Both the position numbers and the translations under genes were made by a program. DNA of 64,000 bases from a virus: positions 1 through 64,000 of the IMG/VR virus record IMGVR_UViG_3300046674_000395; one strand, written 5' to 3'. How positions within the stretch are numbered: the first letter of the stretch is position 1; each line of letters opens with the position of its first letter. The notes under the pieces were generated by a model, which saw only the letters and a list, made by a program, of their open reading frames with translations, was not told the origin of the DNA and did no database searches. This document shows, one piece after another, positions 34,438 to 56,815 of this stretch.

Positions 34438-34481
34438 GGGCCCTCCCCGTCAGGGCGTCACGCCGCCTGCGGGTTGGCGAG

Positions 34482-35083: not shown

Positions 35084-35115
35084 GTCCGCCCGGTCCCCCT
35101 CAGGGCCGGGCGGAC
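35084..35115 (-). terminator. Stem-loop downstream of the HTH gene and upstream of the fibre/late genes
   Basis: Perfect 10-bp stem GTCCGCCCGG / CCGGGCGGAC with a 12-nt loop. No U-tract. Confidence 0.45.
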
Positions 35116-35176
35116 GGTGGGGCCGAGCGCGGGGCGCTACGAGGCCCGGCCTGCGCGACCACCCGCGCAGGGGCAT

Positions 35177-35419: not shown

Positions 35420-35484
35420 TCGTTCACCCCCGGACATGCGAATGGGGCCGCCTTGTCGGCAGCCCCTCAAGTCACAACGATCGC

Positions 35485-35524
35485 ATCTTGAGACCAAGAT
35501 ATGCTCGCCCAGCTCAGAGGGCAA
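35485..35524 (-). promoter_or_regulatory. Candidate promoter TTGCCC-N17-TATCTT overlapped by the inverted repeat ATCTTG-N4-CAAGAT
   Basis: Read on the minus strand: -35 at 35524-35519, -10 at 35501-35496, inverted repeat at 35485-35500. Confidence 0.3.
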
Positions 35525-35536
35525 GTAGTTCTTCAT

Positions 35537-35863
35537 TTACCAACGTTCGTGCCGGTCTCGCCGCAGATCCTTGACGGCGTATAGGACGAGGTATGCGAGG
35601 AGAGCTGCGATGGCCAAGGGCCAGAGGGGCGCAAAGGCTGCCGTGAGCAGGGCGTGGGACAGCGCGTGTCCGCGGGGCGAGCGTCCGCCGGTGAGCGCCA
35701 TGTTGGCACCCCAGAGGGCCACCCCGATGCCGAGGTAGATGGTGACTCCGAGGCCTGGCAGATCGGAGTTTTGAAGCGCGATCACGATAAAGACTACGGA
35801 GCCGATCAGCCACAGGGTGGCGTAGAGCCGGAACAGGGCCTGGTTCGGCACGGCTTCGCTCAT
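35537..35863 (-). CDS. Integral membrane protein (3-4 TM segments)
   Basis: Hydrophobic segments LFRLYATLWLIGSVVFIVIAL, GVTIYLGIGVALWGANMAL and LLTAAFAPLWPLAIAALLAYLVLY. Confidence 0.6.
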   Translation of the reverse strand: MSEAVPNQALFRLYATLWLIGSVVFIVIALQNSDLPGLGVTIYLGIGVALWGANMALTGGRSPRGHALSHALLTAAFAPLWPLAIAALLAYLVLYAVKDLRRDRHERW

Positions 35864-36579
35864 GCAGCCGCTCCTTCGGTTGCGCCCATCGTCTCAGCCA
35901 TCAAGGCTTCCTGCGCGGACCGGAGTTCCCGCCACTCCCCCAGCGTCTCCCATCGGGCGCCGCATGCCCCGCAGTTGACGCGGTGACTGTCGGCGCGGGC
36001 GGTGAGCGGAGTCCAGCAGAGCTGCTCGTCGACTTTGACGGGACAGTTGCCGATCTTCACCCGGCCGGGGCGCCGTTCATCGTTGACGATGGCCGTGCAT
36101 TCGCCGTGCAGCCGCCACAGTTCGTCGATGTCCTGCCCAATTTCCTCGTAACTGGAGCACGCCCACAGCAGGTTGTTGGCGAGGAACTGGGTGAGCTGCG
36201 GGACGGCCTGCGCCGGGCTGCCGCGCCACGGGGCAACGGTCCAGCCGAGCGCGGACCGCCACGAGTCTTCGATAGCCGACAACCGGGCTGCGACACCGCC
36301 CGGCCCGACGAGCGAGAGGACTTCCAGCCGGGGCGGGATCGGCGGGGTCCTGCTGCCGGACGAGCCGCCGCCCGTCCGTTGAGCGCCGCGCATCAGGGCT
36401 GCAGTCGTGTCCAGACGCCGGAACAGAGCGGGGAGCTCAGCGATCCGGGCGGCGGTGGCGTCCTCACACGGGCGGCAGACCCAACGCCCGGCTTCGTTGG
36501 CCCAAAGCTGACGGTTGCAGCGGGGGGTCACGCAGACCGGCCAAGAGTATTCGTCGAGGGTGGCGGGGTGGTCGTGCAC
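35860..36579 (-). CDS. Hypothetical protein with two zinc-ribbon-like CxxC pairs
   Basis: GTG at 36579 with a GAGGAG RBS. Motifs CVTPRCN...CRPC and CGAC. Confidence 0.55.
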   Translation of the reverse strand: MHDHPATLDEYSWPVCVTPRCNRQLWANEAGRWVCRPCEDATAARIAELPALFRRLDTTAALMRGAQRTGGGSSGSRTPPIPPRLEVLSLVGPGGVAARLSAIEDSWRSALGWTVAPWRGSPAQAVPQLTQFLANNLLWACSSYEEIGQDIDELWRLHGECTAIVNDERRPGRVKIGNCPVKVDEQLCWTPLTARADSHRVNCGACGARWETLGEWRELRSAQEALMAETMGATEGAAA

Positions 36580-36705
36580 GGCAGGCTCCTCGGGTGGTGC
36601 GGGGAAGCGGTGACGCAACAAGCCAATTGTGCACCCGAGGGCTTGACACGGCGGGCCAATGGCATAGCAGAAGCCCACCCGGTGATATCGGGCGGGCTTC
36701 TACGG

Positions 36706-36948
36706 TCACGCTGCTTCTTGCCGCCCGTCGACTGCAACGGCCCGCACACATCGGGGGCATTCGCGGATGGCGCCGCCGGGGTAGCCGCGGGCGAGCCAGC
36801 CGGTTTTCCCGCAGGCGGCTTCGAGCGGGTCTTCGTACCAGCGGTTGTCGACGGGTCGGCGGGTGCGGTGGCTGGTGCGACCGTTGACGAATCGGATGTC
36901 GCGGACCGGGAACTGCTCGGCCATCGTCGGGGCGAGCGGGGCAGTCAT
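36706..36948 (-). CDS. Hypothetical protein
   Basis: The start overlaps the upstream stop. Good coding frame. Confidence 0.45.
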   Translation of the reverse strand: MTAPLAPTMAEQFPVRDIRFVNGRTSHRTRRPVDNRWYEDPLEAACGKTGWLARGYPGGAIRECPRCVRAVAVDGRQEAA

Positions 36949-37313
36949 CAGCAGAACTCGTGGAGCGAGAACTCGTAGCCCTCGGCATCCACGAGGCAGC
37001 GGTTCGCCCACTCCGAATGCGCATCCAGCGCGCATCGGAAGCCGTAGCGCCGCAGCAAGGCTCCATCAGCACCTCGGCGGGCCGCCATCGTCTCGACCAT
37101 CTCTGCCAGCGGGACTTCACGCCCGTACTCGTTCCGGACCGCCACATCGGACTGCTCCAGGAAGGCCGCCCACGCCGAACGGCTCGTCAGTCCCAGGTCG
37201 CCGTGAGCGCGACCGAGGAAGACCCAGCCTGCTGCGGTCTTACCGATGTGCAGGCCTTCGCCGTCGCGCTCGCCGCCAGGGAATGGGCCGAACGCGTAGT
37301 AGTTGGTGGACAC
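36948..37313 (-). CDS. Hypothetical protein
   Basis: Protein-like sequence MSTNYYAFGPFPGGERDGEGLHIGK. Confidence 0.55.
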   Translation of the reverse strand: MSTNYYAFGPFPGGERDGEGLHIGKTAAGWVFLGRAHGDLGLTSRSAWAAFLEQSDVAVRNEYGREVPLAEMVETMAARRGADGALLRRYGFRCALDAHSEWANRCLVDAEGYEFSLHEFC

Positions 37314-37322
37314 GAGGTTCTC

Positions 37323-37598
37323 CTATCGGCTGAGGCCGGGCAGGTCGCCCCATCCGGCGATCAGTCCTGGGTTGTGGGCGGCAAGCACCTTGTTGGCGGC
37401 GCAGAGCTGGGCTTGAAGCCGCAGCGTGGGTTCGGTGCGGACCTGGGCGGGGAGGGCGGCGAGCGTGCGCCCGGTCAGGAGTCGGCCGCACAGTCCGGCC
37501 TCGGCGACCGCCTCCCGGACGACGGCGGGGAGTTGGCGGCCGGCGAGGGCGGCGACCGCGTCCGGGACGGGGACCATGGACGCCGGGCGGACAATCAC
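37323..37598 (-). CDS. Hypothetical protein
   Basis: Coding frame, coupled to the upstream gene. Confidence 0.45.
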   Translation of the reverse strand: MIVRPASMVPVPDAVAALAGRQLPAVVREAVAEAGLCGRLLTGRTLAALPAQVRTEPTLRLQAQLCAANKVLAAHNPGLIAGWGDLPGLSR

Positions 37599-37813
37599 GG
37601 CTGTCCTGCCGGGTTGCGGGCGAGGAGCCAGTTCTCGTCGCCACGGCTGCGGTATCGCTCGGCCAGGTCGGAGCGTCCGGCACGGTCGGCTTTCTCGGCT
37701 TCGGCGTCCCAGTGCTTCACGGCGTCCAGGTGTGCGGTGGCGAGCAGTTGGGCGGTGGTGGCGGGCTCAGGCTTCAGCGACGTGGAGTTGCTGTTGCGGG
37801 TCGAGCTGGTCAA
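37595..37813 (-). CDS. Hypothetical protein; first gene of a minus-strand operon at a divergent junction
   Basis: Coding frame, with an upstream non-coding palindromic region. Confidence 0.5.
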   Translation of the reverse strand: MTSSTRNSNSTSLKPEPATTAQLLATAHLDAVKHWDAEAEKADRAGRSDLAERYRSRGDENWLLARNPAGQP

Positions 37814-37854
37814 CGGGTCCCCCTTAGCGCAGTAATTCAGTCCGCCATAGCAAT

Positions 37855-37920
37855 CAACTAGCGATCACTAGTTGCGGTTCCTATGCCTCAGACCGTACTC
37901 CTGAGGCATAGGCACCGCAA
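37855..37920. promoter_or_regulatory. Divergent control region with two palindromes
   Basis: CAACTAG-N6-CTAGTTG (37855-37874). A 49-nt near-perfect palindrome TTGCGGTtCCTATGCCTCAG-N9-CTGAGGCATAGGcACCGCAA (37872-37920). Confidence 0.55.
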
Positions 37921-37943
37921 CCCTGTTGCGATACATTGACTCC

Positions 37944-38234
37944 ATGAATCCGACCGCGCCCACAGGGCCGCCATCCCTGGAGGACATCGCCGCAGCTGGC
38001 ACCCGCCGGCAGCGCGACGCCGACCGCCTCAAGAAGTCCGGCGACGAGCTGAAGGAACTCGTCCTCGCCGCGCTCCGCGAAGGGGTCCACCGCCCCACCG
38101 AAGTCGCCAAGGCCTCAGGCTGGACCGGCGCTCACGTGCGGAAGATGGCGCGGGATGCAGGCATCGAGCCTGACGAGCGCTACCGAGAGAGGGCCGAGCG
38201 ACTCAAGAAAGCGCAGGCCGGGGAGTCCGAGTGA
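37944..38234 (+). CDS. Small HTH-like regulator candidate (paralog of 61243-61452)
   Basis: ATG at 37944 is preferred over the track's TTG at 37926. PTEVAKASGWTGAHVRKMARDAG is HTH-like. Confidence 0.55.
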   Translation: MNPTAPTGPPSLEDIAAAGTRRQRDADRLKKSGDELKELVLAALREGVHRPTEVAKASGWTGAHVRKMARDAGIEPDERYRERAERLKKAQAGESE

Positions 38235-39778: not shown

Positions 39779-40294
39779 CTACAGGCCGCGGTTGTGGGCG
39801 AGTTCGGCGGCCCTGCCGAACTGGAGCAGGACGGGGGCAGCGCTGGTCTGGCCGGCGTTCCAGGAGGGGATCGTTCCTGCGGTCGGGAAGTCCTGCTGGA
39901 TGGCTTCGAGCAGGAGGATGCACGCGTCATCGGCGAGGCGACGATCCCCGTGGGCTTCGAGGCGGATCGCTCGGATCGGGCAGACCGCTCCGGCCTCGTC
40001 GAAGATGGCGTCGCGGCACCATCCGTCGACCGCGATCCGCTGCTGGGCCCGCCGGAGCAGGCCGGCGATCGGGCTGCTGTACGGGCTGGGCGCCAGGGTC
40101 GGGGTGAGCTGGAACGGCGCGGCGATCTCGGCCGGCGCGTCGACGGCGATGTGGGCGCTGTTGATGTCGACGGCGAGTACGGCGGTTCGGCAACGCCCGT
40201 CCATCTCGGCGAGGCGGAGCGCCATGCGGGCGTCGAGGTCGAGCACGGGGGTCGCGGTGGGTGGACTTGCCAGGGTGGGGGTGTGCGTGGTCAT
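39779..40294 (-). CDS. DUF6197-like protein (a family frequent on Streptomyces plasmids/AICEs)
   Basis: ATG at 40294. The motif IAGLLRRAQQRIAVDGWCRDAIFDEAGAVCPIRAI resembles DUF6197. Confidence 0.45.
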   Translation of the reverse strand: MTTHTPTLASPPTATPVLDLDARMALRLAEMDGRCRTAVLAVDINSAHIAVDAPAEIAAPFQLTPTLAPSPYSSPIAGLLRRAQQRIAVDGWCRDAIFDEAGAVCPIRAIRLEAHGDRRLADDACILLLEAIQQDFPTAGTIPSWNAGQTSAAPVLLQFGRAAELAHNRGL

Positions 40295-40383
40295 CTCCTG
40301 TTGCCTGTCTGCGCGTTCGCGCGTGGTGGGTGGATGGGGCGCCCCTGGTGGCTTCCAGGCGTTCGAGGGGCGCCCCGGCTGAG

Positions 40384-40578
40384 CTACTTGCCGCCGAGCG
40401 GCGTGGAGGCGTTGGCCCACGAAAGCTCGGACAGTTCGCCCTTGGGGCCGGTGCCGCGCTTGTTCCGCTCGCTGATCTCGTGAGCGATCCGTTCTGCCTC
40501 GGCAGCGTCGCCGCGCTGCATGGCGGCGACGAACTCGCGGACGGACTGGTGCTTGTACTCGACGCCCATGGCCGTCAC
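40384..40578 (-). CDS. Small protein, tandem paralog B
   Basis: Shares HQSV(R/H)(E/D)(F/Y)(V/I)AA...GD....(E/D)RI..E with the upstream gene. Confidence 0.55.
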   Translation of the reverse strand: MTAMGVEYKHQSVREFVAAMQRGDAAEAERIAHEISERNKRGTGPKGELSELSWANASTPLGGK

Positions 40579-40766
40579 GCTCCTTCGCCGAAGGTGACGT
40601 GCATCGATGCGTGGCCGAGCTGAGCCATCTCGCTGCCGTCGGTGGTGCGGGTGTTGAAGCGGGTGGTGGCCTCGCGGAGGATCCGGTCGGTGGTGGCGCG
40701 GTCGCCGCGCTTCTTCGCGGCGATGTAGTCGTGCACGGACTGGTGGGTGATCTTCAGGTCGGACAT
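40575..40766 (-). CDS. Small protein, tandem paralog A
   Basis: ATGA overlap with paralog B and the shared N-terminal motif. Confidence 0.55.
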   Translation of the reverse strand: MSDLKITHQSVHDYIAAKKRGDRATTDRILREATTRFNTRTTDGSEMAQLGHASMHVTFGEGA

Positions 40767-40808
40767 GCGATCTCCTGGTTCGAGGGGCTGCTGGTCGGTT
40801 GCGCTGAG

Positions 40809-41168
40809 CTATCGGCGACTGCCGGCCTTAGCGCGGTCGCCGCGGCGGAGCCGGTCGAGTGCCTGCTGCGAGGTGGGGGCGGCGTACTGGCGGCCGGGGG
40901 TGGCGATGTCGCGCATCCCGGCGGGCGGCTGCTCGTAGACGGTGCCGCTCTGGCCGAGGAGTCCGGAGGCGGACAGGTGGCCGGTCATCCACTCGCCGGT
41001 GAGCCGGGACTGCCGGTCGAAGGTGTGGGCGCTGTAGGTCTGGTCGTCTTCGTAGGGGGCGAGGTTGGTCGCCATGTTGTTGATCGTGTAGACGGTCTTG
41101 CCTTTGCTGAGCCAGCGGTTGAGGTCTTTGGCGCCCCTGCGGGTGGGCTGCCAGCTGCGTCCGGCCAT
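40809..41168 (-). CDS. Hypothetical protein
   Basis: Coding frame. First gene after the clt-like region. Confidence 0.5.
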   Translation of the reverse strand: MAGRSWQPTRRGAKDLNRWLSKGKTVYTINNMATNLAPYEDDQTYSAHTFDRQSRLTGEWMTGHLSASGLLGQSGTVYEQPPAGMRDIATPGRQYAAPTSQQALDRLRRGDRAKAGSRR

Positions 41169-41234
41169 GAGTGATCTCCTGCTTCCGTCGTCTTGGGTTT
41201 GCCCTGGTTTGGGCGGTTGGATGGATGGTCGACG

Positions 41235-41381
41235 CCCGGTCGGCGCCTAGTTTGCGGTGGTATGAGACCCGGTCGAGGATGCGGCACCCCGGTCGCCGGG
41301 CCGCCGCGATCCGTAGTGCGACCGGGTTACATACCGGCCCATAGCGGGCCGGTACCACCCTCCGACCAGGCGGCGACCGGG
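41235..41381. repeat. clt-like cluster of the 8-mer CCCGGTCG/CGACCGGG plus a 9-bp palindrome
   Basis: Direct copies at 41235, 41268 and 41288. Inverted copies at 41319 and 41374, plus a near copy at 41363. TACCGGCCC-N5-GGGCCGGTA at about 41332-41354. All lie in the 222-bp non-coding gap just 3' of the translocase gene. Confidence 0.55.
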
Positions 41382-41390
41382 TTGTCTGTC

Positions 41391-43454
41391 CTACTTGGCG
41401 GCAGCTTCGGCGAGCTGCTCGCGGGTGTAGCCGTTCGGGTTGGCCAGCCCGTCGAGCGGGCCGAGCTTGCGGGTGCCGCCGGCACCGGCGTCGCGAAGGC
41501 GGGCCTGCAACTCGGGCTCGGTCACGCCCTGGTAGCGGTCGGGCCGGTAGGCGATCAGCAGTTCCAGGAGCCGCTTGGTGCGGGCCCGGTCGACTCCGTT
41601 GGCGTCGAGAACCGTGAGGGCGTCGGCCAGCAGCTCCTTGTGCACCGACGCCGGTTCCGTCTTGCCGTACTCGGCGGCGAACCCCGTCAGAGTCCCGGCT
41701 TCGATGCGCAGTTGGCGGCCACGCAGGCAGATGTCTCGGAACTCGGGGATCGTCATGAAGTCGGTCTTCAGGGTGACGTGCCCCTCCTCGCCGCCCTGGT
41801 CGAGTACGACGACGCCCTTCTGCGAGTCGAGGAGCATGTGGGGTGCGGCTCCGGCGGCGACGGCGTCGTCGCCGAGGACCATCCGGGAGCTGGCTGCGCC
41901 CTTGACTCGGAAGCAGGCGGTCTTGCGGCACACGTTGCGCAGCATGGTCGGCACGCTGCTCGCGTCCGGGCGCTGGGTGATGAAGAGGCCCATGCCGCCT
42001 GCGTAACGGCTGACGCGGACGAACCGGGCCATGGTCTCGACGAGGACTTCCTTGCCGTTGCGGCCCTTGTCCCTGCTCTCGGAATCGTCATCCGTCTTGA
42101 TCTTCATCATGGCGGCGGCGTCCAGGAGTTCCTGCAGCTCGTCGACGATCAGCAGGGTCAGGCCGCGCTTCCACAGCTTCGCCAGTTCGGGGGTGAGCTT
42201 GCCCTCCGGGCACTGCTCCGGGTGCTCCTCGGACAGCTGCTCCAGCTTCTCGCCGATCTCCTGCATGTCGGCGATCAGCTCGTTCAGCAGGTCCAGGAAG
42301 GCGAGGATCTTCGCAGGAGTGTTGCCAGCCACGTAGGACTGGGCGAACTGCTTGGTCGCCGCCCAGTCCGGGCCGGCCTTCCCGGTGGCCACGTGGACGG
42401 TCATGTACGGGTCGAGGGCGGCGGTCGCGGCGACGAGGCGGGCCAGGAACGACTTGCCGTAGTCGGGCAGGCCGCCCAGCAGCAGGGAGCACCACACCAG
42501 TTCCAGGACGTGCCGGGTTCCACGGGGGTCAGTACCCAGAGGGACGCCGCCCTGCCAGAAGTCCCACTGCTCCAGGGTGAGCAGCGGCGAGGGCACCTTC
42601 TTGGAGCCGTAGGGGTTGGCCTCGTTGGCCACCCACAGCACGAACCGTCCCTCGTGCCCTTCCTCGGAGGAGTCGGCGTGCATCTCGACCTGGGACTTCT
42701 TCACCTTCAGCGCCGAGGCCAGCTCTTCGGCCTTGGAGATGGCGGACGACGCCTTCATCCCACCGGGCAGTTCCGCGGTGGCGGTCCAGCCGGGGCCAGC
42801 GGGCCGGATGATGCCGACCAGGTGGGTCTCGTCGCGCTGTGCCTCGCTGATGATCCCAGCCTTGACGAGCGCGGTGATCAGGTCGGCCTCGCCGCGGATC
42901 TGGGCTGCGTCCCGCGGGGCCGTGCCGAACAAGTCGCTGCCCCCGCCGGCTCCTGCGATACCGGCCCGGTGGCGGCCGTGGAAGGCGCCGAGACCCCAGG
43001 TGCCGAGAACGGCGAGAGCGTCCACCCACAGGCTGCCGGTAACGACTCCGAAGCCGACTCCCCCGGTGACCGCTCCAGCCACCCCGGCGGTCTTGCCCGT
43101 GTAGGCGAGGCGGTGCCGCTTGTACTCGTCGCGAAGGTCGGCGCGCCGCTTCTTGGCCGCGCCCTCCGCATGCATGTCGCCTGCCGCATCACGGACGGCC
43201 TCGCCCGCTGTTGCGATCAGCTGCGGGTAGTCGTCGCGGTAGCGGTCGACCCAGCGGCGGCCGAGCTGCCGGTAGCCGCGGGCGGTGTGCGGCAGCAGGG
43301 CGAGCTGGGCGATGCGGTTGGTGCGCTCAGCAATCGTCCGCACCGACGGGGCCGGCTTGCGGTCGGCCGCCTCGTCCTTGAAGACGGGCGCCTCGGGAAC
43401 GTCTTGGACGAGGGTCAGCAGGACACGCTCGTCGGTCAGCGGGGTGGCCATCAT
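41391..43454 (-). CDS. traB: FtsK/SpoIIIE-family dsDNA translocase, TraB/TraSA-like
   Basis: Two N-terminal TM segments. Walker A LLGGLPDYGKS, Walker B LTLLIVDELQ, and a C-terminal winged-helix-like tail. The start ATGATG at 43454 overlaps the upstream stop. Confidence 0.8.
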   Translation of the reverse strand: MMATPLTDERVLLTLVQDVPEAPVFKDEAADRKPAPSVRTIAERTNRIAQLALLPHTARGYRQLGRRWVDRYRDDYPQLIATAGEAVRDAAGDMHAEGAAKKRRADLRDEYKRHRLAYTGKTAGVAGAVTGGVGFGVVTGSLWVDALAVLGTWGLGAFHGRHRAGIAGAGGGSDLFGTAPRDAAQIRGEADLITALVKAGIISEAQRDETHLVGIIRPAGPGWTATAELPGGMKASSAISKAEELASALKVKKSQVEMHADSSEEGHEGRFVLWVANEANPYGSKKVPSPLLTLEQWDFWQGGVPLGTDPRGTRHVLELVWCSLLLGGLPDYGKSFLARLVAATAALDPYMTVHVATGKAGPDWAATKQFAQSYVAGNTPAKILAFLDLLNELIADMQEIGEKLEQLSEEHPEQCPEGKLTPELAKLWKRGLTLLIVDELQELLDAAAMMKIKTDDDSESRDKGRNGKEVLVETMARFVRVSRYAGGMGLFITQRPDASSVPTMLRNVCRKTACFRVKGAASSRMVLGDDAVAAGAAPHMLLDSQKGVVVLDQGGEEGHVTLKTDFMTIPEFRDICLRGRQLRIEAGTLTGFAAEYGKTEPASVHKELLADALTVLDANGVDRARTKRLLELLIAYRPDRYQGVTEPELQARLRDAGAGGTRKLGPLDGLANPNGYTREQLAEAAAK

Positions 43455-44722
43455 CGGTCCTTCTTCTCGGCGGTCTGCTTGGCGGCGATGGACGCCTGGC
43501 GGCGCGCGGCCGACGTGTATTTGACGTCGCCCTTGCTGCGGATTCCGCGGCGTGCGGGCGGGCTGTAGACGCGCTGCTTCTTCGCGGAGGGCACTTGCGA
43601 TGCACGCTGCGCGTTCGTGGTCTTGCTGAGGGTGTTGACGGGGGTGCCAGTGAGGGCGGATTCGACGCGCTTTTCGGCGGTGCGGCGCGAGCTGATGGAC
43701 TCGATGGAGTCCCCCGGGTCGCAGCCCTTGATGTTGCGGTAGGCACGGGGCCACACGGCCGGGTCGTCGGGCTCCTTGCCGAGCGCGGCACCGATCTGCA
43801 CGGCCTCGTCCCACACGTCCTTGAACACGGTCTGCCGGATCTCCCGCAGCTCCTGCCGGGCCTTCTCGGCAGCCTCGTCGGCAGCCTTCTTCTCGGCCCG
43901 CTTCCTCTCCTCCTCGGCAGCCTTCCGCGCGGCCTCGGCGCGCTCGTTCTTCCGCTGCACCTTCCGCTCCCGGCGGGTGAGGACGCCGTCGCGCTTGCGG
44001 ATGCGGCCGTGCTCGTGGAGGTCCCACACGCCAGGGCCGGCGATCGAGGCGAACGCGGTCGCGATGGCGGTGGCAGGGTCGAACGCGTTGAGCCCGTGCC
44101 ACAGGTTGATCGCAGCGGCGATGAAGGCGAGGAGCCAGGCGATCAGCCGGTAGTGCCATTGGGGTCGGTGCGCAGCGACGGCTGCGGCTGCTCCCTTGAG
44201 GACGACCCAGGCACCGCCTTCGAGCATGAGCGGCGCGGCCATCAGCCACAGCGCCTTCGGGTCGTAGAACGCGGCGACCTGGACGGGCAGGGCGACAATC
44301 GCGCAGACGATGTAGAAGCCGCGGGCGTAGCCGCGCCACCGGTCCTCCGCTTCGGCGACCTCGGCCTCTTGAGCCTGCGCGACAGCCTTCTGCTTCTCGG
44401 CCTCCCGGGCGCCCTCCTCGCGGGCACGGTCGGCTTCCTCGCGCTTGCGGTTCGACTCGGCGATGCGGGCATCGCGTGCGGCCTGCTCCTCGATGGCGCG
44501 GGCCTCGGCCTTGTCGTTGAGGAGCTTCTGCTTGCGGGCATCCTCGACGGCCTTGATCTTCTCGGCCTCAGCCTTGCCCTCGGCTTCGATCCGGGCGGCT
44601 TCGGCGTCAGCGGCGGCTCGGGTACGGATCGCCTCCGCCTCGGCCAGCGCGCGCGGGTCGAACCGCGGCTCGGGCGAGGTCTTCGGCGTGCCGTTGACCT
44701 TCTCGACGGACATGGCGGTCAC
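43451..44722 (-). CDS. DUF2637-like membrane protein with Ala/Glu/Lys/Arg-rich coiled regions (Spd-like)
   Basis: Central block of about 4 TM segments (FYIVCAIVALPVQVAAF, LWLMAAPLMLEGGAWVVL, LIAWLLAFIAAAINLW, AIATAFASIAGPGVW) flanked by charged helices. Immediately upstream of the translocase. Confidence 0.65.
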   Translation of the reverse strand: MTAMSVEKVNGTPKTSPEPRFDPRALAEAEAIRTRAAADAEAARIEAEGKAEAEKIKAVEDARKQKLLNDKAEARAIEEQAARDARIAESNRKREEADRAREEGAREAEKQKAVAQAQEAEVAEAEDRWRGYARGFYIVCAIVALPVQVAAFYDPKALWLMAAPLMLEGGAWVVLKGAAAAVAAHRPQWHYRLIAWLLAFIAAAINLWHGLNAFDPATAIATAFASIAGPGVWDLHEHGRIRKRDGVLTRRERKVQRKNERAEAARKAAEEERKRAEKKAADEAAEKARQELREIRQTVFKDVWDEAVQIGAALGKEPDDPAVWPRAYRNIKGCDPGDSIESISSRRTAEKRVESALTGTPVNTLSKTTNAQRASQVPSAKKQRVYSPPARRGIRSKGDVKYTSAARRQASIAAKQTAEKKDR

Positions 44723-44761
44723 GGTGATCGGTGTCCTTTCGGATCGTTGACGGCGGGACGA

Positions 44762-44944
44762 TCAGTGCTGGTGGCGCGAGAACGTGCTGTGCGGCGGGGT
44801 GTGCCGGATCGCGTCGCCTTCAGCGGCGTTCCGGTCGACGGACGGGCGGGACGCCCGCTTCCCGCAGGAGCAGGACCAGTCGAAGTGGGCGGCCAGAGCC
44901 GGGCGGTTGGACTTCCACGGGGCGATGTGAATGACGTGATCCAT
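44762..44944 (-). CDS. Small hypothetical protein
   Basis: High GC3 frame. Confidence 0.45.
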   Translation of the reverse strand: MDHVIHIAPWKSNRPALAAHFDWSCSCGKRASRPSVDRNAAEGDAIRHTPPHSTFSRHQH

Positions 44945-44957
44945 TGGGTCCTCGCAG

Positions 44958-45170
44958 TCAGGCGTCGACAGGGGTGGCGGCCGGGACGGGGGCGGGCCGG
45001 TTCCTGGCCCAGGCGATACCGGCGGTCAGCAACCAGACCGGCGTAGGGATCAGACCGAAGACCACGACCAGTCCCGCGACCAGCAGGGACACCGGCGCAG
45101 CCGCTGCCGGCCACAGGCCCACGACGATCAGATACAGACCCAACAGGACGATCAAGATGATGCGGAGCAT
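44958..45170 (-). CDS. Small two-TM membrane protein (Spd-like candidate)
   Basis: MLRIILIVLLGLYLIVVGLW...LLVAGLVVVFGLIPTPVWLLTAGIAW. Confidence 0.6.
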   Translation of the reverse strand: MLRIILIVLLGLYLIVVGLWPAAAAPVSLLVAGLVVVFGLIPTPVWLLTAGIAWARNRPAPVPAATPVDA

Positions 45171-45227
45171 GACGACCTCACAGGTCAGATGGGGTATCGA
45201 CGGGTGGTGCTGCGCTGGTTCTCCTCA

Positions 45228-45248
45228 CCGCCCGTGCGAGACGGGCGG
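45228..45248 (-). terminator. Short stem-loop after the 45262 stop
   Basis: CCGCCCGT-GCGAG-ACGGGCGG. Confidence 0.3.
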
Positions 45249-45261
45249 ATCGGGCAGCCGG

Positions 45262-45459
45262 TCAGCGCTTGGTGCCGCCGTGCCAGCGGGACACCTTGGC
45301 GGCGGCCTCGTTCGCGGCGGCGTTCAGCCGCACGTACTCGGGCGTCTCGTCGCGGATGCCAGCCTTCTTCTCCTTGCGCTGGTTCTCGTGCAGCGCGGCG
45401 TCGACCTTGCGCAGTTCCGCGATCGCGGCCTTCTCTTCGGCGGTCTTCTTCCAGCCCAT
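45262..45459 (-). CDS. Small Lys/Glu-rich hypothetical protein
   Basis: Coding frame with a GAAGAGGAG RBS. Confidence 0.5.
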   Translation of the reverse strand: MGWKKTAEEKAAIAELRKVDAALHENQRKEKKAGIRDETPEYVRLNAAANEAAAKVSRWHGGTKR

Positions 45460-45514
45460 GGCGGGCTCCTCTTCTGTGGTGGCGGATGGTGGGGAGTGGA
45501 GGGGTGGCGCCCGG

Positions 45515-45697
45515 TCAGCGGCGGAATGCGGCGCTGATCAGGGCGCTCATGTCGTCGGTGCGGTCGGCGACCTTGCCGGACTCCAGCTGGGCGGCACGGC
45601 TGTCGTAGCGGTCGGCGGCGGCGTCCTTGCCACGGCCGCGGGCCGTCTGGGCGGCGGCACGGTTGGCGGCGGCAGCCTTCTTGATGCGGTCGGTCAT
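45515..45697 (-). CDS. Small hypothetical protein (60 aa)
   Basis: ATG at 45697. The upstream part of the track ORF is Pro/Arg junk. Confidence 0.45.
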   Translation of the reverse strand: MTDRIKKAAAANRAAAQTARGRGKDAAADRYDSRAAQLESGKVADRTDDMSALISAAFRR

Positions 45698-45788
45698 GTG
45701 GTGCCTCTCGGGTCGGGATCGGGTGTGGTGCGCGCCCCGGGCCGGATTCGCTCCGGCGCCCTCACGGCTGGATGCCGGGGCTGTGGGG

Positions 45789-46082
45789 TCAGGCGGCTTC
45801 GGTCCAGGCGATGAGCGCGTGCAGCTGGTCGACGATCCGCGCCCCGAACGGCTGCGCGGCGTCGATCTCTTCGGCCCGGTCGAAGATCGCGACCAGGGCT
45901 GCGGTGTCGCCGGCCTTGTCGGCGGCGATCGCACGGATCAGCAACTCGGCGCCCTCATCACCGCGGACCGCCTCGTAGGAGTCGTCCACCTGGGCTGCGC
46001 GGATACCGGCAGAGATCTCGCGGACAGTCGCGGAGACGGTGCGGAGGTCAGCATCGAAAACGAACATGGAGGTGCCCTTCAC
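45789..46082 (-). CDS. Hypothetical acidic protein (alternative start at 46067)
   Basis: Coding frame. Confidence 0.5.
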   Translation of the reverse strand: MKGTSMFVFDADLRTVSATVREISAGIRAAQVDDSYEAVRGDEGAELLIRAIAADKAGDTAALVAIFDRAEEIDAAQPFGARIVDQLHALIAWTEAA

Positions 46083-46114
46083 ATGGGTCAGCGGGAATGG
46101 GGTGAGGTGGAAGA

Positions 46115-46154
46115 CCGCGGCGCGGGACGGGGGGAATGTCGGACCGCGCCGCGG
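46115..46154 (-). terminator. Stem-loop between the micro-ORF chain and the next gene
   Basis: 11-bp stem CCGCGGCGCGG / CCGCGCCGCGG with an 18-nt loop. Confidence 0.35.
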
Positions 46155-46167
46155 CCGAACAGGGGGC

Positions 46168-46245
46168 CTACTTCGGCCGGGACTCGCTTGCCTTGTTCTT
46201 CTCGCGCAGCTTGCGCAGCATCTCCGCGTACTCGGCGTCGGTCAT
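46168..46245 (-). CDS. Micro-ORF (25 aa, MTDAEYAEMLRKLREKNKASESRPK)
   Basis: ATGA overlap with the upstream ORF. Found by hand. Confidence 0.3.
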   Translation of the reverse strand: MTDAEYAEMLRKLREKNKASESRPK

Positions 46246-46412
46246 GACCGCTCGTCGACGATCGCCAGAAGCGACCGCAGTGAGGCCCGGAGGCGACCGA
46301 CCATCATCTCGGCGCCACCCACCGTGCCGAGGTCGTCGACATCAGATTCGGCGAGAGCCTCCCGGGCCACGGCGACCCAGGCCTGCTCGCGCGGCGTCAG
46401 CTTGCCGGCCAT
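46242..46412 (-). CDS. Small ORF (56 aa)
   Basis: ATGA overlaps at both ends. Found by hand. Confidence 0.4.
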   Translation of the reverse strand: MAGKLTPREQAWVAVAREALAESDVDDLGTVGGAEMMVGRLRASLRSLLAIVDERS

Positions 46413-46651
46413 CACGCGGCCTCGATCAGGTGCAGCAGACCGGCGGCAGCCAGGGTGGCGCGGGAGCCGGCGATCAGCTCCTCGGCGACGACGAAGCCCT
46501 CCGCGTCCAGATCCGACAGCTGACCGGCTTCGGCGAGCTCGGCCAGGTTGGATCGGTGCAGGGCAGCCGTCTCGTACACGGTCACGGCACGGACGATGGC
46601 CGGGGCGAGCAGGACGGCCGGGTGGGTCGGGGTTGCGGTGCTCATGGTCAC
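46412..46651 (-). CDS. Hypothetical protein
   Basis: Coupled to the HTH gene upstream. Confidence 0.5.
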   Translation of the reverse strand: MTMSTATPTHPAVLLAPAIVRAVTVYETAALHRSNLAELAEAGQLSDLDAEGFVVAEELIAGSRATLAAAGLLHLIEAA

Positions 46652-46902
46652 GCCACCTCCGAGGTGGGCTGAGAGTCGGTGCGGGAGTTGCGCAGGTACT
46701 CGACGACGGCCGACTGCGGGACCTTCAGACCGGTGCGACGCTTCTGGCCACTACCGAGCTGAATGGAGGGCAGGTCACCGCTGGCGATCAAGCGGTAGAC
46801 GGTCGCGGGGTGGACATCCAGGTACTCGGCGACCTCTGCCGGCTTGAGCGCCCCCTGCAACAGGGCGAGCTCTCTTGCGAGTTCGTCGTTGGGCGTGGGC
46901 AC
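46648..46902 (-). CDS. Excisionase-family helix-turn-helix DNA-binding protein
   Basis: LKPAEVAEYLDVHPATVYRLIASGDLPSIQLG is a typical excisionase/MerR-type HTH_17 pattern. Confidence 0.7.
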   Translation of the reverse strand: MPTPNDELARELALLQGALKPAEVAEYLDVHPATVYRLIASGDLPSIQLGSGQKRRTGLKVPQSAVVEYLRNSRTDSQPTSEVA

Positions 46903-46946
46903 AGAGGCCTCCGGTCATTGGGGCAGGTCAGGGCTAGGTTGCCGCC

Positions 46947-46962
46947 ACTTGGATATCCATGT
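46947..46962. promoter_or_regulatory. Operator-like palindrome ACTTGGATATCCAtGT upstream of the HTH/transfer operon
   Basis: 15 of 16 matches to the perfect palindrome ACTTGGATATCCAAGT. Confidence 0.5.
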
Positions 46963-47028
46963 TGCGACTAGAGAAACCGTAGCCGCTACAGCATGGGTAT
47001 GCAAGTAGCGCGACAAGTCCGAGCGCAG

Positions 47029-47061
47029 CAAAAAGCCCCCAACCGCAGAGCAGTTGGGGGC
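47029..47061 (-). terminator. Intrinsic terminator of the GntR gene
   Basis: Minus strand: GCCCCCAAC-N9-GTTGGGGGC followed by TTTTTG, 20 nt after the stop. Confidence 0.7.
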
Positions 47062-47080
47062 TCACCTGGAGGGACGCCTC

Positions 47081-47872
47081 CTACACGTCAATCACGTACC
47101 GGAAGGCGTGCCGGTCACACGGGACGATCGAGTCTTGAACCTCCAGCACGTCACCGGCCGAGTCGTAGGCGGTGCGGATCACGCGCGCCACCGGAACGCC
47201 TTCCGGGATGTCGAGTTGCTCGACCTCATGGGGATACGGCATCCGGACATCGAGGTCTTCGATGAACTGGGTGATGCGCCGGCCAATGGGTCCGTCGGGG
47301 TCTTCAATGATGGCGTTGGCCCCACCCTTGATCAGGCGAGGTTCGGCAAGACGGGTTCCTGCCGCGATACTGGCGTCGTAGTAGGCGTCGCACAGCAGCA
47401 TCGGCGTGTCCGCCTCCCCGTCGGCACTCTTCATGACGAACCGAAGGCGTCGGACGATCATCGGCGCTCCAGGCGCGACGCGGAATCGCTCGGCGATCGC
47501 CTCCGGAGCCGGGGTCTCGACGACCTCGCGGATCTCTTGCTGCGCCTTCTGCCCCTGTGCGCGAGCTTCTGCGTTGTAGTTCGACTCCCCGGTCGCCCGG
47601 CGGGCGCGGTAGATGCTGCCCGTCTGGCGCAGGCTGACGTTGGGGCGCTCGCGAACGGTGGAGTGCTTGCCCTGACTGCTGGTGATCAACCCCTCCGCCC
47701 GCAGCACGGCAACACCCTTGCGCACGGTGGCCCGGCTGGCGCCGAAGCGCTGTTCGAGCTGCTCCTGCGAAGGGATCTTGTCTCCGGGGGCCAGATCGCC
47801 CCGGATGATCTCGGCGCGGAGCTCGTCGGCGATCTGCTTGAAGGGCGGCACCTTGGATGGGTTGGTTGACAT
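47081..47872 (-). CDS. GntR-family (HutC/UTRA subfamily) transcriptional regulator, KorSA-like
   Basis: N-terminal wHTH FKQIADELRAEIIRGDLAPGDKIPSQEQLEQRFGASRATVRKGVAVLRAEGLI with a C-terminal UTRA-like domain. ATG at 47872. Confidence 0.8.
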   Translation of the reverse strand: MSTNPSKVPPFKQIADELRAEIIRGDLAPGDKIPSQEQLEQRFGASRATVRKGVAVLRAEGLITSSQGKHSTVRERPNVSLRQTGSIYRARRATGESNYNAEARAQGQKAQQEIREVVETPAPEAIAERFRVAPGAPMIVRRLRFVMKSADGEADTPMLLCDAYYDASIAAGTRLAEPRLIKGGANAIIEDPDGPIGRRITQFIEDLDVRMPYPHEVEQLDIPEGVPVARVIRTAYDSAGDVLEVQDSIVPCDRHAFRYVIDV

Positions 47873-47885
47873 CGCACTCCTGACT

Positions 47886-47924
47886 ACTTGGATACCCATT
47901 GGAAGCGTAGCGGGATATCCAAGT
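47886..47924. promoter_or_regulatory. Two operator-like sites directly upstream of the GntR start
   Basis: ACTTGGATAcCCAttg (47886-47901) and agcGGGATATCCAAGT (47909-47924). Confidence 0.5.
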
Positions 47925-47931
47925 TGTGCGT

Positions 47932-48351
47932 CTAGCTTGTGCGCGCCACCCACCCTGACCAGCGAGTTACTTGGATCTCGATGACCGGCCCGGCCGGTCG
48001 CCGGTCGCGATATTGGGCGTACTTGGATAGGAGAGCCTCTACAAGTTCGCCGGCATCCTCGTTCTCCAGCACGCGCGCCCGCCCGTCAGCACGCACCCAC
48101 CAAAGCTGCTCCCAGTCCTCGTCGAAATGATCGACAAGGAGCGTGACAGCTGGGTTCTCTCGAATGTTCCGAAGCCGCTTCAGGTTGCTGTGCCGCTTCG
48201 GCTTGTGATCCACCGCGATCGCAACGCGCTCCCCCACAACCGCGAACGTGGCGGGGACCAAGTGCGGGTGACCTGCGGCATCGGCAGTCGAGAGGCGCAG
48301 AACTCTAGCTCCCTCGAAGCGTTGACGCTGCTCGCCTGCCGACATCTCCAT
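47932..48351 (-). CDS. PPOX-class (pyridoxamine 5'-phosphate oxidase-like), probably F420-dependent, oxidoreductase
   Basis: The pattern ARVLRLSTADAAGHPHLVPATFAV...VDHKPK...NPAVTLLVDHFDEDW..LWWVRADG is typical of the split-barrel PPOX family. Confidence 0.65.
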   Translation of the reverse strand: MEMSAGEQRQRFEGARVLRLSTADAAGHPHLVPATFAVVGERVAIAVDHKPKRHSNLKRLRNIRENPAVTLLVDHFDEDWEQLWWVRADGRARVLENEDAGELVEALLSKYAQYRDRRPAGPVIEIQVTRWSGWVARTS

Positions 48352-48428
48352 GGTCCGACGCTACCCACACCCGGATTCGTCGCACCACTTGCACGCTCCG
48401 CGCCATTGGCGCTACTTTCAGTGGGCCA

Positions 48429-48444
48429 TCTTGGATACCCAAGT
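48429..48444. promoter_or_regulatory. Operator-like palindrome tCTTGGATAcCCAAGT in the divergent region
   Basis: 14 of 16 matches to the consensus. Lies between the PPOX start (48351) and the plus-strand gene at 48562. Confidence 0.5.
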
Positions 48445-49328: not shown

Positions 49329-50867
49329 GGCACCCCCTGACGCAGCGCCAGGGGGTGCCGAATGAGGAGATTTAAGGTGAAGAGGTTCCAGCCGCAGCCC
49401 GGTTTCGTGGTGCAGGCGTACCGCTTCGCCATGGACCCCAACGCCACCCAAGAGCAGGCACTGCGCTCGCACTGTGGTGCGGCCCGCGCTGCCTACAACT
49501 GGGCTGTCGGCTGGGTGACCGCCTCCTGGTGGCAGCGGAAGGCCGAGGAGTCTTACGGCATCCCCGAGGCTGAACTGACGCCTTGGCGGCCGTGGTCGCT
49601 GCCGTCTCTAAGAAAGGCGTTCAACGAGGCCAAGCACGCCGACCCGCGATTCGCAGACTGGTGGGCGGAAAACTCCAAGGAGGCGTACAGCACCGGTCTT
49701 ACAAACGCTGCCGCCGCCTTCGACAACTACAGCAAGTCGAAGCGTGGAAAGCGGCAGGGCCGAAAGGTAGGTTCGCCGCGTTTCAAGTCGAAGCGGAAAG
49801 CACGCCTGTCCTGCCGGTTCACCACCGGCACCATCCGCGTCGATGTGGATGGCCGCCACGTCACGCTTCCCCGGCTTGGCACGGTCCGTGTGCACGAGCG
49901 CGCGGACAACCTCCGTGACCGGCTGGCGGCCGGTACTGCGCGGATCCTGTCCGCGACCGTGCGGCACGAGCGCGGACGCTGGTTCGTCTCGTTCCAGGCC
50001 GAGGTCAAGCGGGACCTCGAACGCGTGGCGCGGCCGGACGTGGCGGTCGGTATCGACCTGGGGGTGAAGACCCTCGCGGTCATGGCCGACAGCACCGGCG
50101 AGATCCGCACCATCGCGAATCCCGGGCACTACGACCGCGCACGCAAGCAGCTGCGCCGCGCCTCCCGCGTCGTCTCCCGCCGCCAGGGCCCCGACCGCAG
50201 GACCGGGCAGAAGCCGTCGAAACGGTGGGAGAAGGCCAACGCCGCCCGCAACAAGGTGCATCACCGGGTGGCGAACCTCCGCGGGGACGCCCTGCACAAG
50301 CTCACCACAAGCGTGGCAGCCGAGTACGGCACAGTCGTGGTCGAAGACCTCAACGTCGCCGGGATGCTCCGCAACCGGCGTCTCGCGCGCAGGATCGCCG
50401 ACGCCGGGTTCGGGGAGATCCGCCGCCAGCTCGACTACAAGATGCGCCAGCGCCACGCCACCCGCACCGTCGCGGCGGACCGCTGGTACCCCTCCTCGAA
50501 AACCTGTTCCGGGTGCGGCGCAGTGAAAGCCAAGCTGCTGCTGCACATCCGGACCTACCAATGCGACGCCTGCAACCTGGTCATCGACCGGGACGACAAC
50601 GCCGCACTCAACCTCGCCGCACTCGCGGCAGTCGCAGTAACTGGTACCGGAGTGGCCGGAGACCAGGACACCGCCCCGGCGGTGTCGAAGCCTCGTGGAG
50701 CCGACCAGAAGTCCCGCACCACCCGCCCCCGCCGCAAGGCTGGGACGGGGCGGGCAGGTGGCGCAACCCTGCCGCACCAGCGGCAGGCGGAAACGAGAGA
50801 CCGCACTCAAGCCGAAGCACTCACGCTTTGGTGATGTGACGGACCTTCCGGGCCGAAATGCCCGGAA
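49329..50867 (+). mobile_element. Solo-TnpB IS200/IS605-family (IS1341-like) element; ends approximate
   Basis: tnpB is flanked by an 11-bp-stem hairpin at 49329-49359 and an 8-bp-stem hairpin at 50846-50867. No tnpA is present. Confidence 0.5.
49362..50834 (+). CDS. tnpB: TnpB (RuvC-like RNA-guided endonuclease, OrfB_IS605 plus zinc ribbon); probable true start GTG at 49377
   Basis: YRFAMDPNATQEQALRSHCGAARAAYNWAV N-terminus. Motifs DLGVKTLAV, VVVEDLNV, SSKTCSGCG...YQCDACNLVIDRDDNAALNL. AGGAGA sits 7 nt before the GTG. Confidence 0.85.
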   Translation: MRRFKVKRFQPQPGFVVQAYRFAMDPNATQEQALRSHCGAARAAYNWAVGWVTASWWQRKAEESYGIPEAELTPWRPWSLPSLRKAFNEAKHADPRFADWWAENSKEAYSTGLTNAAAAFDNYSKSKRGKRQGRKVGSPRFKSKRKARLSCRFTTGTIRVDVDGRHVTLPRLGTVRVHERADNLRDRLAAGTARILSATVRHERGRWFVSFQAEVKRDLERVARPDVAVGIDLGVKTLAVMADSTGEIRTIANPGHYDRARKQLRRASRVVSRRQGPDRRTGQKPSKRWEKANAARNKVHHRVANLRGDALHKLTTSVAAEYGTVVVEDLNVAGMLRNRRLARRIADAGFGEIRRQLDYKMRQRHATRTVAADRWYPSSKTCSGCGAVKAKLLLHIRTYQCDACNLVIDRDDNAALNLAALAAVAVTGTGVAGDQDTAPAVSKPRGADQKSRTTRPRRKAGTGRAGGATLPHQRQAETRDRTQAEALTLW

Positions 50868-56302: not shown

Positions 56303-56815
56303 TCACCGGGACACGGGCGGGCAGTCGGCCTCCCAGTGCCAGCCCATGACCGGCGACCGGCGTACCCCGTGCTCCCCGCACTCGGCGTCCGGGACGATGC
56401 CCCCGCACGGGTAGACGACCGGGCACACGCACGACCGGGACACAGCCGTGTAGGGCAGCGCATGCCGCACGTCCCGCGGGGCCGGCCGGCCTGTCGTCAG
56501 CACGCGGTGCGCCCGGTCGGCGACCTCGCCCGGCGTGGCCCCGCCCAGCAGGTGAAGGTCGGGCACGGTGACGCCGTCGACGGACAGCCCCCACTGGACG
56601 GCGCCCTCGTCCTCGCCGTCGCCGGTCCAGCCGATGACGAGGAACGGCTGGTCGTCGGCGTTGAGGATTTGGTGCGCGGTGTGGTTGAGGTTGATGACGA
56701 TGGCGGATTCGTGGGCGTCGCGGATGGTCCAGCCGTGCGCTTCGATGGCGTCGGCGACGGATCGCACCCAGGTGTCGGGCATTTCGTCGGTGATGGTGGT
56801 GGGCTGGTCGGTCAT
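56303..56815 (-). CDS. Hypothetical protein (170 aa)
   Basis: ATG at 56815. Protein-like sequence. Confidence 0.55.
   Translation of the reverse strand: MTDQPTTITDEMPDTWVRSVADAIEAHGWTIRDAHESAIVINLNHTAHQILNADDQPFLVIGWTGDGEDEGAVQWGLSVDGVTVPDLHLLGGATPGEVADRAHRVLTTGRPAPRDVRHALPYTAVSRSCVCPVVYPCGGIVPDAECGEHGVRRSPVMGWHWEADCPPVSR

Follow-up and report, generated by a model that had tools for sequence, protein, structure and literature searches.

A probable Streptomyces-type DNA transfer module as a conserved part of a temperate siphovirus family

Gene transfer by phages and gene transfer by conjugative elements are commonly regarded as distinct, although one Streptomyces plasmid-phage, pZL12, has been reported to act in both ways. 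The locus described here raises the question of what a set of conjugation-type genes does within the genome of a tailed phage. It belongs to the IMG/VR virus record IMGVR_UViG_3300046674_000395, of which the stretch from position 1 to 64,000 (64 kb, in the following called the window) was analyzed, and occupies the minus strand from 48.4 to 39.8 kb. An original prediction, made from the sequence, had described this block as a DNA transfer module, and each of the features it listed was found again at or near its place. In our view, the block most probably represents a complete double-stranded DNA (dsDNA) transfer module of the Streptomyces type which is integral to a phage family and in which a TraB-like translocase would drive a capsid-independent movement of phage DNA; we assign a probability of roughly 60% to this reading. 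Movement of the phage dsDNA between hyphae or hyphal compartments would be the most likely function.

The central gene of the block (41391..43454, minus strand) encodes a predicted TraB-like dsDNA translocase of 687 aa with an FtsK fold. Its hydrophobic helical N-terminal region is followed by a motor domain and, at the C-terminus, by a winged-helix-like domain. Walker A (GGLPDYGKS), Walker B (LLIVDELQE) and the motif FITQRPDA (QRPD) are all invariant in 39 homologues, as are the residues G333, K334, E439 and Q494-R495-P496. Searches against solved structures by sequence, both with the single protein and with a profile of the 39 sequences, gave no significant match, and structure prediction was therefore used. 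The AlphaFold model has a pLDDT (predicted local distance difference test) of 81, residues 190-687 being mostly above 88. Its best Foldseek matches are the FtsK motor (6t8o, 2iut, 2ius) and TcpA (6o1w), the coupling protein of pCW3, with E values of 5e-14 to 1e-12 and TM-scores of about 0.6 on the target. A match to PHROG 1358, named “FtsK/SpoIIIE-like protein”, was found at E = 9e-20. The assignment of the protein to FtsK is based on this predicted fold together with the motifs. Two N-terminal membrane segments had been predicted; residues 121-158 form a Gly-rich hydrophobic stretch (Kyte-Doolittle maximum 1.65) which would fit one or two membrane segments and for which the confidence of the model is low. 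The C-terminal domain (residues 586-687) is modelled with a pLDDT of 88 as three consecutive helices followed by a beta wing. The ratio of nonsynonymous to synonymous substitutions (dN/dS) is 0.25-0.32 for TraB and 0.23-0.28 for the large terminase subunit TerL, so that TraB is under purifying selection comparable to that on TerL.

The gene upstream of traB (43451..44722, minus strand) overlaps it by 4 bases (ATGA) and is translationally coupled to it. It encodes a membrane protein of 423 aa whose architecture resembles that of SpdB2. Residues 1-130 consist to 65% of A, E, K and R and are predicted as coiled coil. Transmembrane (TM) helices are predicted at 133-154, 157-178, 189-215 and possibly 216-232, and a charged C-terminal domain follows. 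SpdB2 as published is a protein of 409 aa in which a coiled coil (residues 1-99) and four TM helices precede the C-terminal domain (PMC4447253). Thus, the size of about 400 aa, the coiled coil, the TM helices and the coupling to traB are all found in the 423-aa protein. The original prediction had named it a multi-TM protein similar to DUF2637. The overlap with traB and three to four TM helices were recovered, but the family match was not, since Pfam PF10935 (DUF2637) reaches 15.2 bits, below the cut-off of 22.8. Only one of seven close relatives (P0191, 23.6 bits) passes this threshold, and some relatives are named “SpdB2 protein” or “DUF2637” in their source records. The protein is 31% identical (E = 7e-10) to the protein encoded upstream of TraB in plasmid L015 and 47% identical to a plasmid protein adjoining a TraB homologue; on plasmid CP108397.1 an SpdB2-like gene is the neighbour of a TraB homologue. 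The alleles of the module are mosaic, as phages with 76-84% identity in TraB share only 27-39% in the SpdB2-like protein; at this divergence the comparison is saturated, and dN/dS is uninformative for this gene. The divergence of the alleles, together with a phage-specific N-terminus of TraB, suggests a modular swapping of membrane partners.

A clt-like cis site follows directly on traB. Starting 10 bp past the stop codon, five copies of the 8-mer CGACCGGG/CCCGGTCG are located within 147 bp (41235..41381), and the remaining 64 kb or so of the window contain 16 further copies. This clustering right after the translocase gene, as originally predicted, is far beyond chance. A cluster of 2-7 copies within 350 bp is found downstream of TraB in all close relatives. 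In phages as well as in several AICEs (actinomycete integrative and conjugative elements) the register after the stop codon is kept, with CCCGGTC at about +12, +24, +68 and +89 and GACCGGG at about +100, +120 and +153. The 8-mer changes together with the C-terminal domain of TraB. Among 38 distinct TraB proteins, which are related by descent so that the counts are not a statistic of independent samples, CCCGGTCG is kept by all 24 that share at least 56% identity with the window protein over their last 100 residues. All 14 with at most 46% identity in this region lack the window motif and have another repeated 8-mer instead, namely GAGCACCC (six copies; used in L030), CCGAGCAG (four), CCCGGACA (four) or CCCGTCCA (four). 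The motor domains of these 14 loci are about equally similar (52-66%). A pairing of TraB and clt that behaves likewise is described in the literature (PMC4447253). The co-variation indirectly supports the idea that the C-terminal domain may read the repeats of its own locus. A strand skew of the 8-mer across the window, of the kind known for KOPS (FtsK-orienting polar sequences), was not seen. A second small cluster of CGACCGGG with three copies of mixed orientation in 104 bp (56416..56519) is located inside an early gene (56303..56815); it may be a secondary TraB site or due to chance.

The regulator of the block is encoded at its upstream end. A GntR/UTRA gene of the HutC type (47081..47872, minus strand; Pfam GntR E = 6e-16, UTRA E = 8e-17) is a candidate for a Kor/TraR-like repressor of the module. 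Plasmids, AICEs and related prophages have GntR genes in the corresponding position, with whose products it shares 26-37% identity. An operator-like motif, TATCCAAG, embedded in palindromes of the form CTTGGrTAyCCAAG, occurs five times in the window (at 46948, 47887, 47916, 48022 and 48430; 0.23 copies expected), and all five copies fall within 1.5 kb (46948..48437), in agreement with the palindromic operators originally seen around the regulator. One copy is located 46 bp upstream of the start of the helix-turn-helix (HTH) gene g64, and two flank the start of the GntR gene, at its promoter. An intrinsic-terminator-like hairpin with a T-run (47029..47060, minus strand) follows just after the GntR stop codon and is the sole minus-strand terminator-like site between 39.5 and 48.7 kb. 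Because no further site of this kind is present in the block, the genes from 46902 to 39779 could form one operon.

The putative first gene of this operon (46648..46902, minus strand) encodes a DNA-binding protein of 84 aa of the HTH_17/excisionase family (Pfam HTH_17 E = 8e-13; TIGR01764 36.1 bits, cut-off 28.8), which agrees with the excisionase-type HTH of the original prediction. The gene is distant from any integrase, and homologues come after GntR in the loci L010, L030, L045, L048, L049 and L117. Seven small open reading frames (ORFs) follow on the minus strand (44762..46651: 46412-46651, 46242-46415, 45789-46082, 45515-45697, 45262-45459, 44958-45170 and 44762-44944), which were defined by codon and GC3 (third-position GC) models and by the JGI gene calls on identical contigs. 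None of the seven matches a family. The product of 44958-45170 has 70 aa and two TM segments. Genes of the g58, g59, g61 and g63 types are found again in related loci, and a g59-like gene also in plasmid L015. Downstream of the cis site follow, all on the minus strand, gene g55 (40809-41168, 119 aa), two paralogues of 63-64 aa (40575-40766 and 40384-40578) with the common start HQSV.(E/D).(V/I)AA..RGD and a gene for a DUF6197 protein (39779-40294, Pfam E = 1.4e-14). The pair of paralogues is kept downstream of TraB in some relatives. In the AICE L033 as well as in related prophages, TraB is followed by g55-like and DUF6197 genes. Immediately upstream of GntR, the minus strand encodes a PPOX-class F420-dependent oxidoreductase of 139 aa (47932-48351; TIGR03668, 165 bits), with one operator-like motif inside the gene and one upstream of it. 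This gene looks like cargo that is co-regulated with GntR.

How closely does this gene set correspond to known transfer modules? TraB matches 55 plasmid records with 25-34% identity and E values up to 7e-52. Most of them are small Streptomyces plasmids, and the matching genes are annotated as FtsK/SpoIIIE domain-containing proteins. The same gene order is present in the Streptomyces decoyicus plasmid NZ_CP107886.1, with GntR (26% identity), an SpdB2-like protein (31%, E = 7e-10), a g59-like gene and TraB (32.5%, E = 2e-59). Genomic loci of the AICE type, which are small elements, match TraB with 53-63% identity and only from residue 181 onwards (181-687). One of them, L031, adjoins a tRNA-Ser gene. 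Another, L033, consists of GntR/UTRA, an SpdB2-like protein, TraB (PF01580), a g55-like gene, DUF6197, Prim-Pol, a 590-aa protein, an HTH_17 excisionase (Xis) and a tyrosine integrase and is, by its Pfam content, a textbook AICE. Gene-by-gene homology in the same order, in NZ_CP107886.1 and in L033, bears out the original view of the block as a Streptomyces plasmid/AICE transfer signature. In its gene content, the phage block equals the half of such AICEs that serves regulation and transfer, and it lacks the half for replication and integration.

The combination of GntR, a coupled SpdB2-like/TraB pair and an 8-mer array is likewise found in pSVH1 (traR-spdB3-spd79-spdB2-traB-clt), in the pSAM2 type and in Prim-Pol AICEs. 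Prim-Pol AICEs such as L033 also have the g55-like and DUF6197 genes as in the block, and some AICEs have the same 8-mer in the same register as the window phage. Unlike AICEs, however, the block does not encode an integrase, an Xis-Int pair or a Rep and has phage genes on either side. It also differs from the modules of plasmids and AICEs in that its GntR gene is co-directional with the operon, with a terminator in between, that its 8-mers are arranged in two orientations and that residues 1-180 of its TraB occur in the phage group only.

The absence of integration and replication genes has to be considered in the light of a first alternative, the accidental insertion of an independent AICE, or of its remnant, into a prophage without functional meaning. 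Such a remnant would look like the transfer half of an AICE devoid of its own int and rep genes, which is what the block looks like, and an IS607-type TnpB gene and a stretch of lower GC content adjoin it. As originally noted, the block carries neither an integrase nor RepSA; a Rep of any of the types searched for (RepSA, RepAM, Prim-Pol/RepPP) is not encoded between 39.8 and 48.4 kb, and no integrase domain, ParA/ParB or tRNA was found in the whole window. The flanks contain only short, imperfect repeats that are typical of GC-rich coding DNA, and no att-like direct repeats bound the block. An AICE bounded by att repeats, with the direct repeats and the integrase by which the original prediction would have recognized an independent AICE, was rejected because of these missing repeats and the missing tRNA and integrase. 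Further points against an insertion are the intact clt array with its conserved register, the selection on TraB described above and the distribution of the module in related prophages.

Homologues of TraB form 242 database clusters, almost all of them from Streptomyces and named “hypothetical”. The exact TraB sequence recurs on contigs of four JGI metagenome samples, and a contig of 87,565 bp is recorded with the exact proteins of the window. In the complete chromosome of Streptomyces sp. NEAU-sy36, a TraB with 77% identity lies in a phage context with the order GntR/UTRA, HTH_17, small genes, a 403-aa protein, TraB, DUF6197, small genes, the small terminase subunit TerS, TerL, an SPP1-type portal, VG15 and capsid. 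The slot is filled in this chromosome (CP058977.1, prophage near 2.40 Mb), in that of Streptomyces sp. NBC_01384 (NZ_CP109559.1, prophage near 8.00 Mb), in the complete chromosome NZ_CP193932.1 and in 46 contigs of IMG/VR. The gene-by-gene comparison with the window covered nine contigs of IMG/VR and 33 genomic loci of Streptomyces and Kitasatospora. Loci that match TraB over its full length (44-84% identity) have a phage context. Upstream of the module, the relatives contain phage early genes (g72-74, g79 and g43-like) and then a short reverse-strand cassette with Nudix, HTH-Nudix, T5orf172-like or XRE-peptide-deformylase genes. GntR, the HTH gene, small ORFs, the SpdB2-like gene, TraB, g55, DUF6197 and the late genes follow. 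Slot and order are the same across prophages with 30-84% identity in TraB and 28-83% in TerL. Even in L095 and L126, with TraB only 30-31% identical, it lies in the same slot before TerL. The relatives are temperate prophages integrated into complete chromosomes and not strictly lytic phages, whose occurrence would have spoken against the original prediction. In those from IMG/VR that were scanned with DnaB, a gene for a tyrosine integrase is located at the far end, upstream of DnaB at a distance of about 10 kb and on the other strand. An integrase is not visible in the window; the equivalent position would fall just beyond coordinate 64000.

This synteny already contradicts an accidental insertion, which is very unlikely since the slot is conserved at deep divergence, no repeats flank the block and TraB is selected like TerL. 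The comparison instead indicates that the module is an old, maintained and vertically conserved component of a large family of temperate siphoviruses in Streptomyces and Kitasatospora. The original prediction had called the architecture rare, and this has to be revised, as it is common and occupies a conserved slot in this family. A census of TraB among TerL relatives was made with 10-kb flanks, which fall short of the slot where about 15 kb of extra genes precede TerS, as is the case in the window phage.

Some genes beside the module in the relatives deserve mention. In L101 (18235-19734, minus strand) and L071 (16938-18428, minus strand), a fusion protein of 496-499 aa combines an XRE-type HTH with a C-terminal peptide-deformylase-like domain (motifs EGCLSF and HEVDHL). 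This reverse-strand gene had been considered as a mid-genome integrase, which was rejected because of these two domains; the product may act as a repressor whose sensor is an enzyme or resembles a protease. Nudix or HTH-Nudix genes, for which the Nudix box was read directly, lie beside the module in L065 (17304-18337, minus strand) and L071 (15911-16324, minus strand) and are absent from the window. In pSAM2, the Nudix protein Pif confers conjugal immunity.

Is the host replicon of the module a phage at all? A second alternative holds that it is mainly an integrative conjugative element with captured late genes, or a defective prophage kept for transfer. It would agree with the lack of this TraB or the SpdB2-like gene in any deposited phage genome, with the closest cultured TerL being only about 47% identical and with the AICE-like Prim-Pol gene that adjoins TerS. 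The sole Prim-Pol gene of the window (23412-23987, minus strand) is short and located directly upstream of TerS, about 16 kb from the block. In homologous AICEs (L033), Prim-Pol is also the replication gene after DUF6197, which hints at a shared ancestry that is wider than the transfer genes. The late region itself points to a phage. Following Prim-Pol, the minus strand between 23 and 2 kb encodes TerS, TerL, portal, VG15, major head protein, a GT4 glycosyltransferase, tail tube, a 1546-aa protein and endolysin. TerS, TerL, portal, VG15, major head protein, tail tube and endolysin each match their own family, and the 1546-aa protein was assigned as tape measure from its position. Together with a replication module, the window hence contains the ordered packaging, head, non-contractile tail and lysis genes of a temperate tailed phage of the siphovirus type. 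As originally predicted, the block lies co-directionally between early and late genes; it shares one strand with the upstream replication genes and the downstream packaging, head, tail and lysis genes. The complete and ordered late genes, the purifying selection on TerL and the recurrence of exact proteins across several metagenome samples and viral-contig collections make an element that is mainly conjugative, or a defective prophage, quite improbable.

Among known phages, the closest parallel in layout is pZL12, the genome of phage ZL12 (GQ919031.1), which the original prediction had named as precedent. It is a tailed-phage genome in which GntR, a membrane protein and an FtsK/SpoIIIE Tra are located directly upstream of the terminase and late genes, as here. 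In detail, its map shows GntR, a run of small genes, a 398-aa membrane protein, a 766-aa protein and the 725-aa FtsK/SpoIIIE Tra, which are followed by terminase, portal and late genes. According to PMC3583192 (citing Zhong 2010), conjugal transfer of pZL12 requires tra and adjacent genes. The precedent holds for the layout but not for the motor. Homology of the window proteins to the pZL12 Tra (pZL12.71c) and membrane protein was rejected, since blastp gave no match and hhalign a probability of 0.6%. Furthermore, pZL12 is an extrachromosomal ParAB plasmid-prophage and a singleton, whereas the family described here is chromosomal, has a tyrosine integrase and is widespread. A phage with conjugative genes is thus already known from pZL12; what is found here is a widespread, integrated and AICE-homologous form with a defined pair of motor and cis site.

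Homologues of SpdB2 in the actinophages phiC31 and VWB were proposed to aid the spread of phage DNA (PMC4447253). For these phages, only the Spd protein was reported, without TraB or clt (PMC4447253). A tblastn search with the SpdB2-like protein of the window gave no match to phiC31 or VWB even at E up to 1, and none to the deposited phages. The Streptomyces phages Jaresh and AndoPrime have FtsK-like ATPase genes too, but these are listed as morons or as development-related and have no link to conjugation. A literature search found no paper on a module of TraB, clt and Kor in integrated prophages. Megablast of the region 36-52 kb against the phage and plasmid collections gave no match except for the segment with the TnpB gene.

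By what mechanism could such a module act? In the lysogen, GntR bound to the TATCCAAG palindromes would keep the operon from the HTH gene to traB silent in the manner of a kil-kor system. Such kil-kor logic is established for traB-traR and KorSA (traB-traR: PMC4447253). Derepression, which would be expected with excision or replication of the phage, would allow TraB hexamers to assemble in the membrane with the SpdB2-like protein as pore protein. The winged-helix C-terminal domain of TraB would recognize the CGACCGGG array just downstream of its own gene, and TraB would then pump the circular or replicating double-stranded phage genome through hyphal walls and cross-walls. The outcome could be a transfer into neighbouring mycelium, i.e., conjugation, a spreading through the compartments of the recipient or infected mycelium, or both. 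In this way the phage would have a capsid-independent route of transmission beside its virions. All TraB matches in genomes come from mycelial genera, which fits both conjugation and compartment spreading. In this scheme, the repression by GntR, the binding of TraB to the 8-mers and the transfer of DNA are the steps that we infer, while gene content, homology, the conserved cis site with its TraB co-variation, synteny and purifying selection were observed directly and the fold was modelled.

Several observations weigh against this interpretation. The FtsK/SpoIIIE identity of TraB proposed originally is supported by Walker motifs and fold, but not by Pfam, as PF01580 does not match even when E values up to 5 are allowed; an AICE relative with 58% identity barely attains the cut-off of this family (24.2 bits). 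The NCBIfam model NF041214 (plasmid_TraB) reaches 31.9 bits compared to a cut-off of 800, and covers residues 473-555 only. PDB matches of the C-terminal domain are all weak (E of at least 0.14), and nearly all of these weak matches are winged-helix DNA binders, e.g., Rex with a probability of 0.97. Residues 1-180 of the phage-type TraB are not common to the AICE proteins, and another partner or role is possible. The regulator gene is co-directional with the operon and has the F420/PPOX gene ahead of it, unlike the divergent kor-tra arrangement, and it might have another regulatory target. The 8-mers are not simple direct repeats, since, read in the direction of traB, the first two copies point one way and the other three the opposite way. 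The TraB gene is present in no cultured phage: tblastn against 50,697 deposited phage genomes gave no match at E = 1e-5, the best being a Bacillus phage FtsK at E = 0.2. Finally, the conservation next to the packaging genes would be equally compatible with a purely intracellular phage function.

The last point leads to a third alternative, that the module was co-opted for a phage task other than transfer, such as exclusion of related DNA, segregation into spore compartments or a feed for packaging. The fixed slot directly upstream of TerS/TerL in many relatives could be explained in this way, as could the distinct N-terminal region of the phage-type TraB and the Nudix and HTH-Nudix genes by the module in relatives, given that the pSAM2 Nudix protein serves conjugal immunity. 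However, the full plasmid transfer set of SpdB2-like protein, TraB, cognate clt and GntR has been retained together and co-varies. In addition, the phage already has TerS and TerL for packaging, and a TraB that is predicted to be anchored in the membrane would not be expected of a packaging factor. We therefore regard co-option as rather unlikely and favour the transfer module. A more far-reaching form of this reading is that a widespread and as yet uncultured family of siphoviruses integrated in Streptomyces and Kitasatospora is truly bimodal, spreading both as virions and as naked dsDNA pumped by TraB, and that TraB-clt pairs have been exchanged repeatedly with AICEs. This form is put forward tentatively, at somewhat less than even odds.

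The remaining parts of the window complete the picture of the phage genome. Genes were called with a codon and GC3 model and mapped in minus-strand reading order, which gave about 94 genes, nearly all on the minus strand, at a GC content of 65-73%. The early and replication genes are located on the minus strand between 64 and 52 kb and encode WhiB, an HTH protein, a C5 cytosine methylase, an HTH_36 protein, a DnaC/IstB-like loader, DnaB, DUF4326 and a LuxR-type protein. A few genes on the plus strand follow between 51 and 48.5 kb. They include an IS607-family gene for an RNA-guided TnpB (49377-50834, plus strand; NF038280, 514 bits) without an obvious TnpA, which lies beside the module in a stretch of lower GC content (64-65%). 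A DNA segment of this region is 85% identical to a part of a 2.35-Mb PLSDB “plasmid” record from Streptomyces sp. NBC_01450. After the transfer-type block, fibre-like and sugar-modifying genes occupy the minus strand from 38 to 24 kb. This stretch of about 14 kb between module and TerS (24000-38000) encodes an NAD-epimerase, a SAM (S-adenosylmethionine) methyltransferase, a protein with a Gp80 podophage-fibre domain and proteins of 371-614 aa without family assignment, some with Ala/Thr-rich repeats, and it is absent or variable in close relatives. The GT4 glycosyltransferase gene (16164-17180, minus strand) lies between the major head protein and the head-tail genes, which suggests a glycosylation of the virion.

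If the bimodal reading is true, one and the same replicon of mycelial bacteria would live both as a phage and as a conjugative element. Provided that the module works as in plasmids, temperate phages could lysogenise their neighbours and spread through a compartmented mycelium without lysis. The distribution of prophages, transduction-like gene flow and the recombination between phages and AICEs in antibiotic producers would then need to be reinterpreted. The older suggestion that Spd proteins aid the spread of phages (Thoma et al., 2015) would gain a testable system with motor, cis site and repressor, and the capsid-independent spread of phages in Streptomyces would become a question that can be tested directly.

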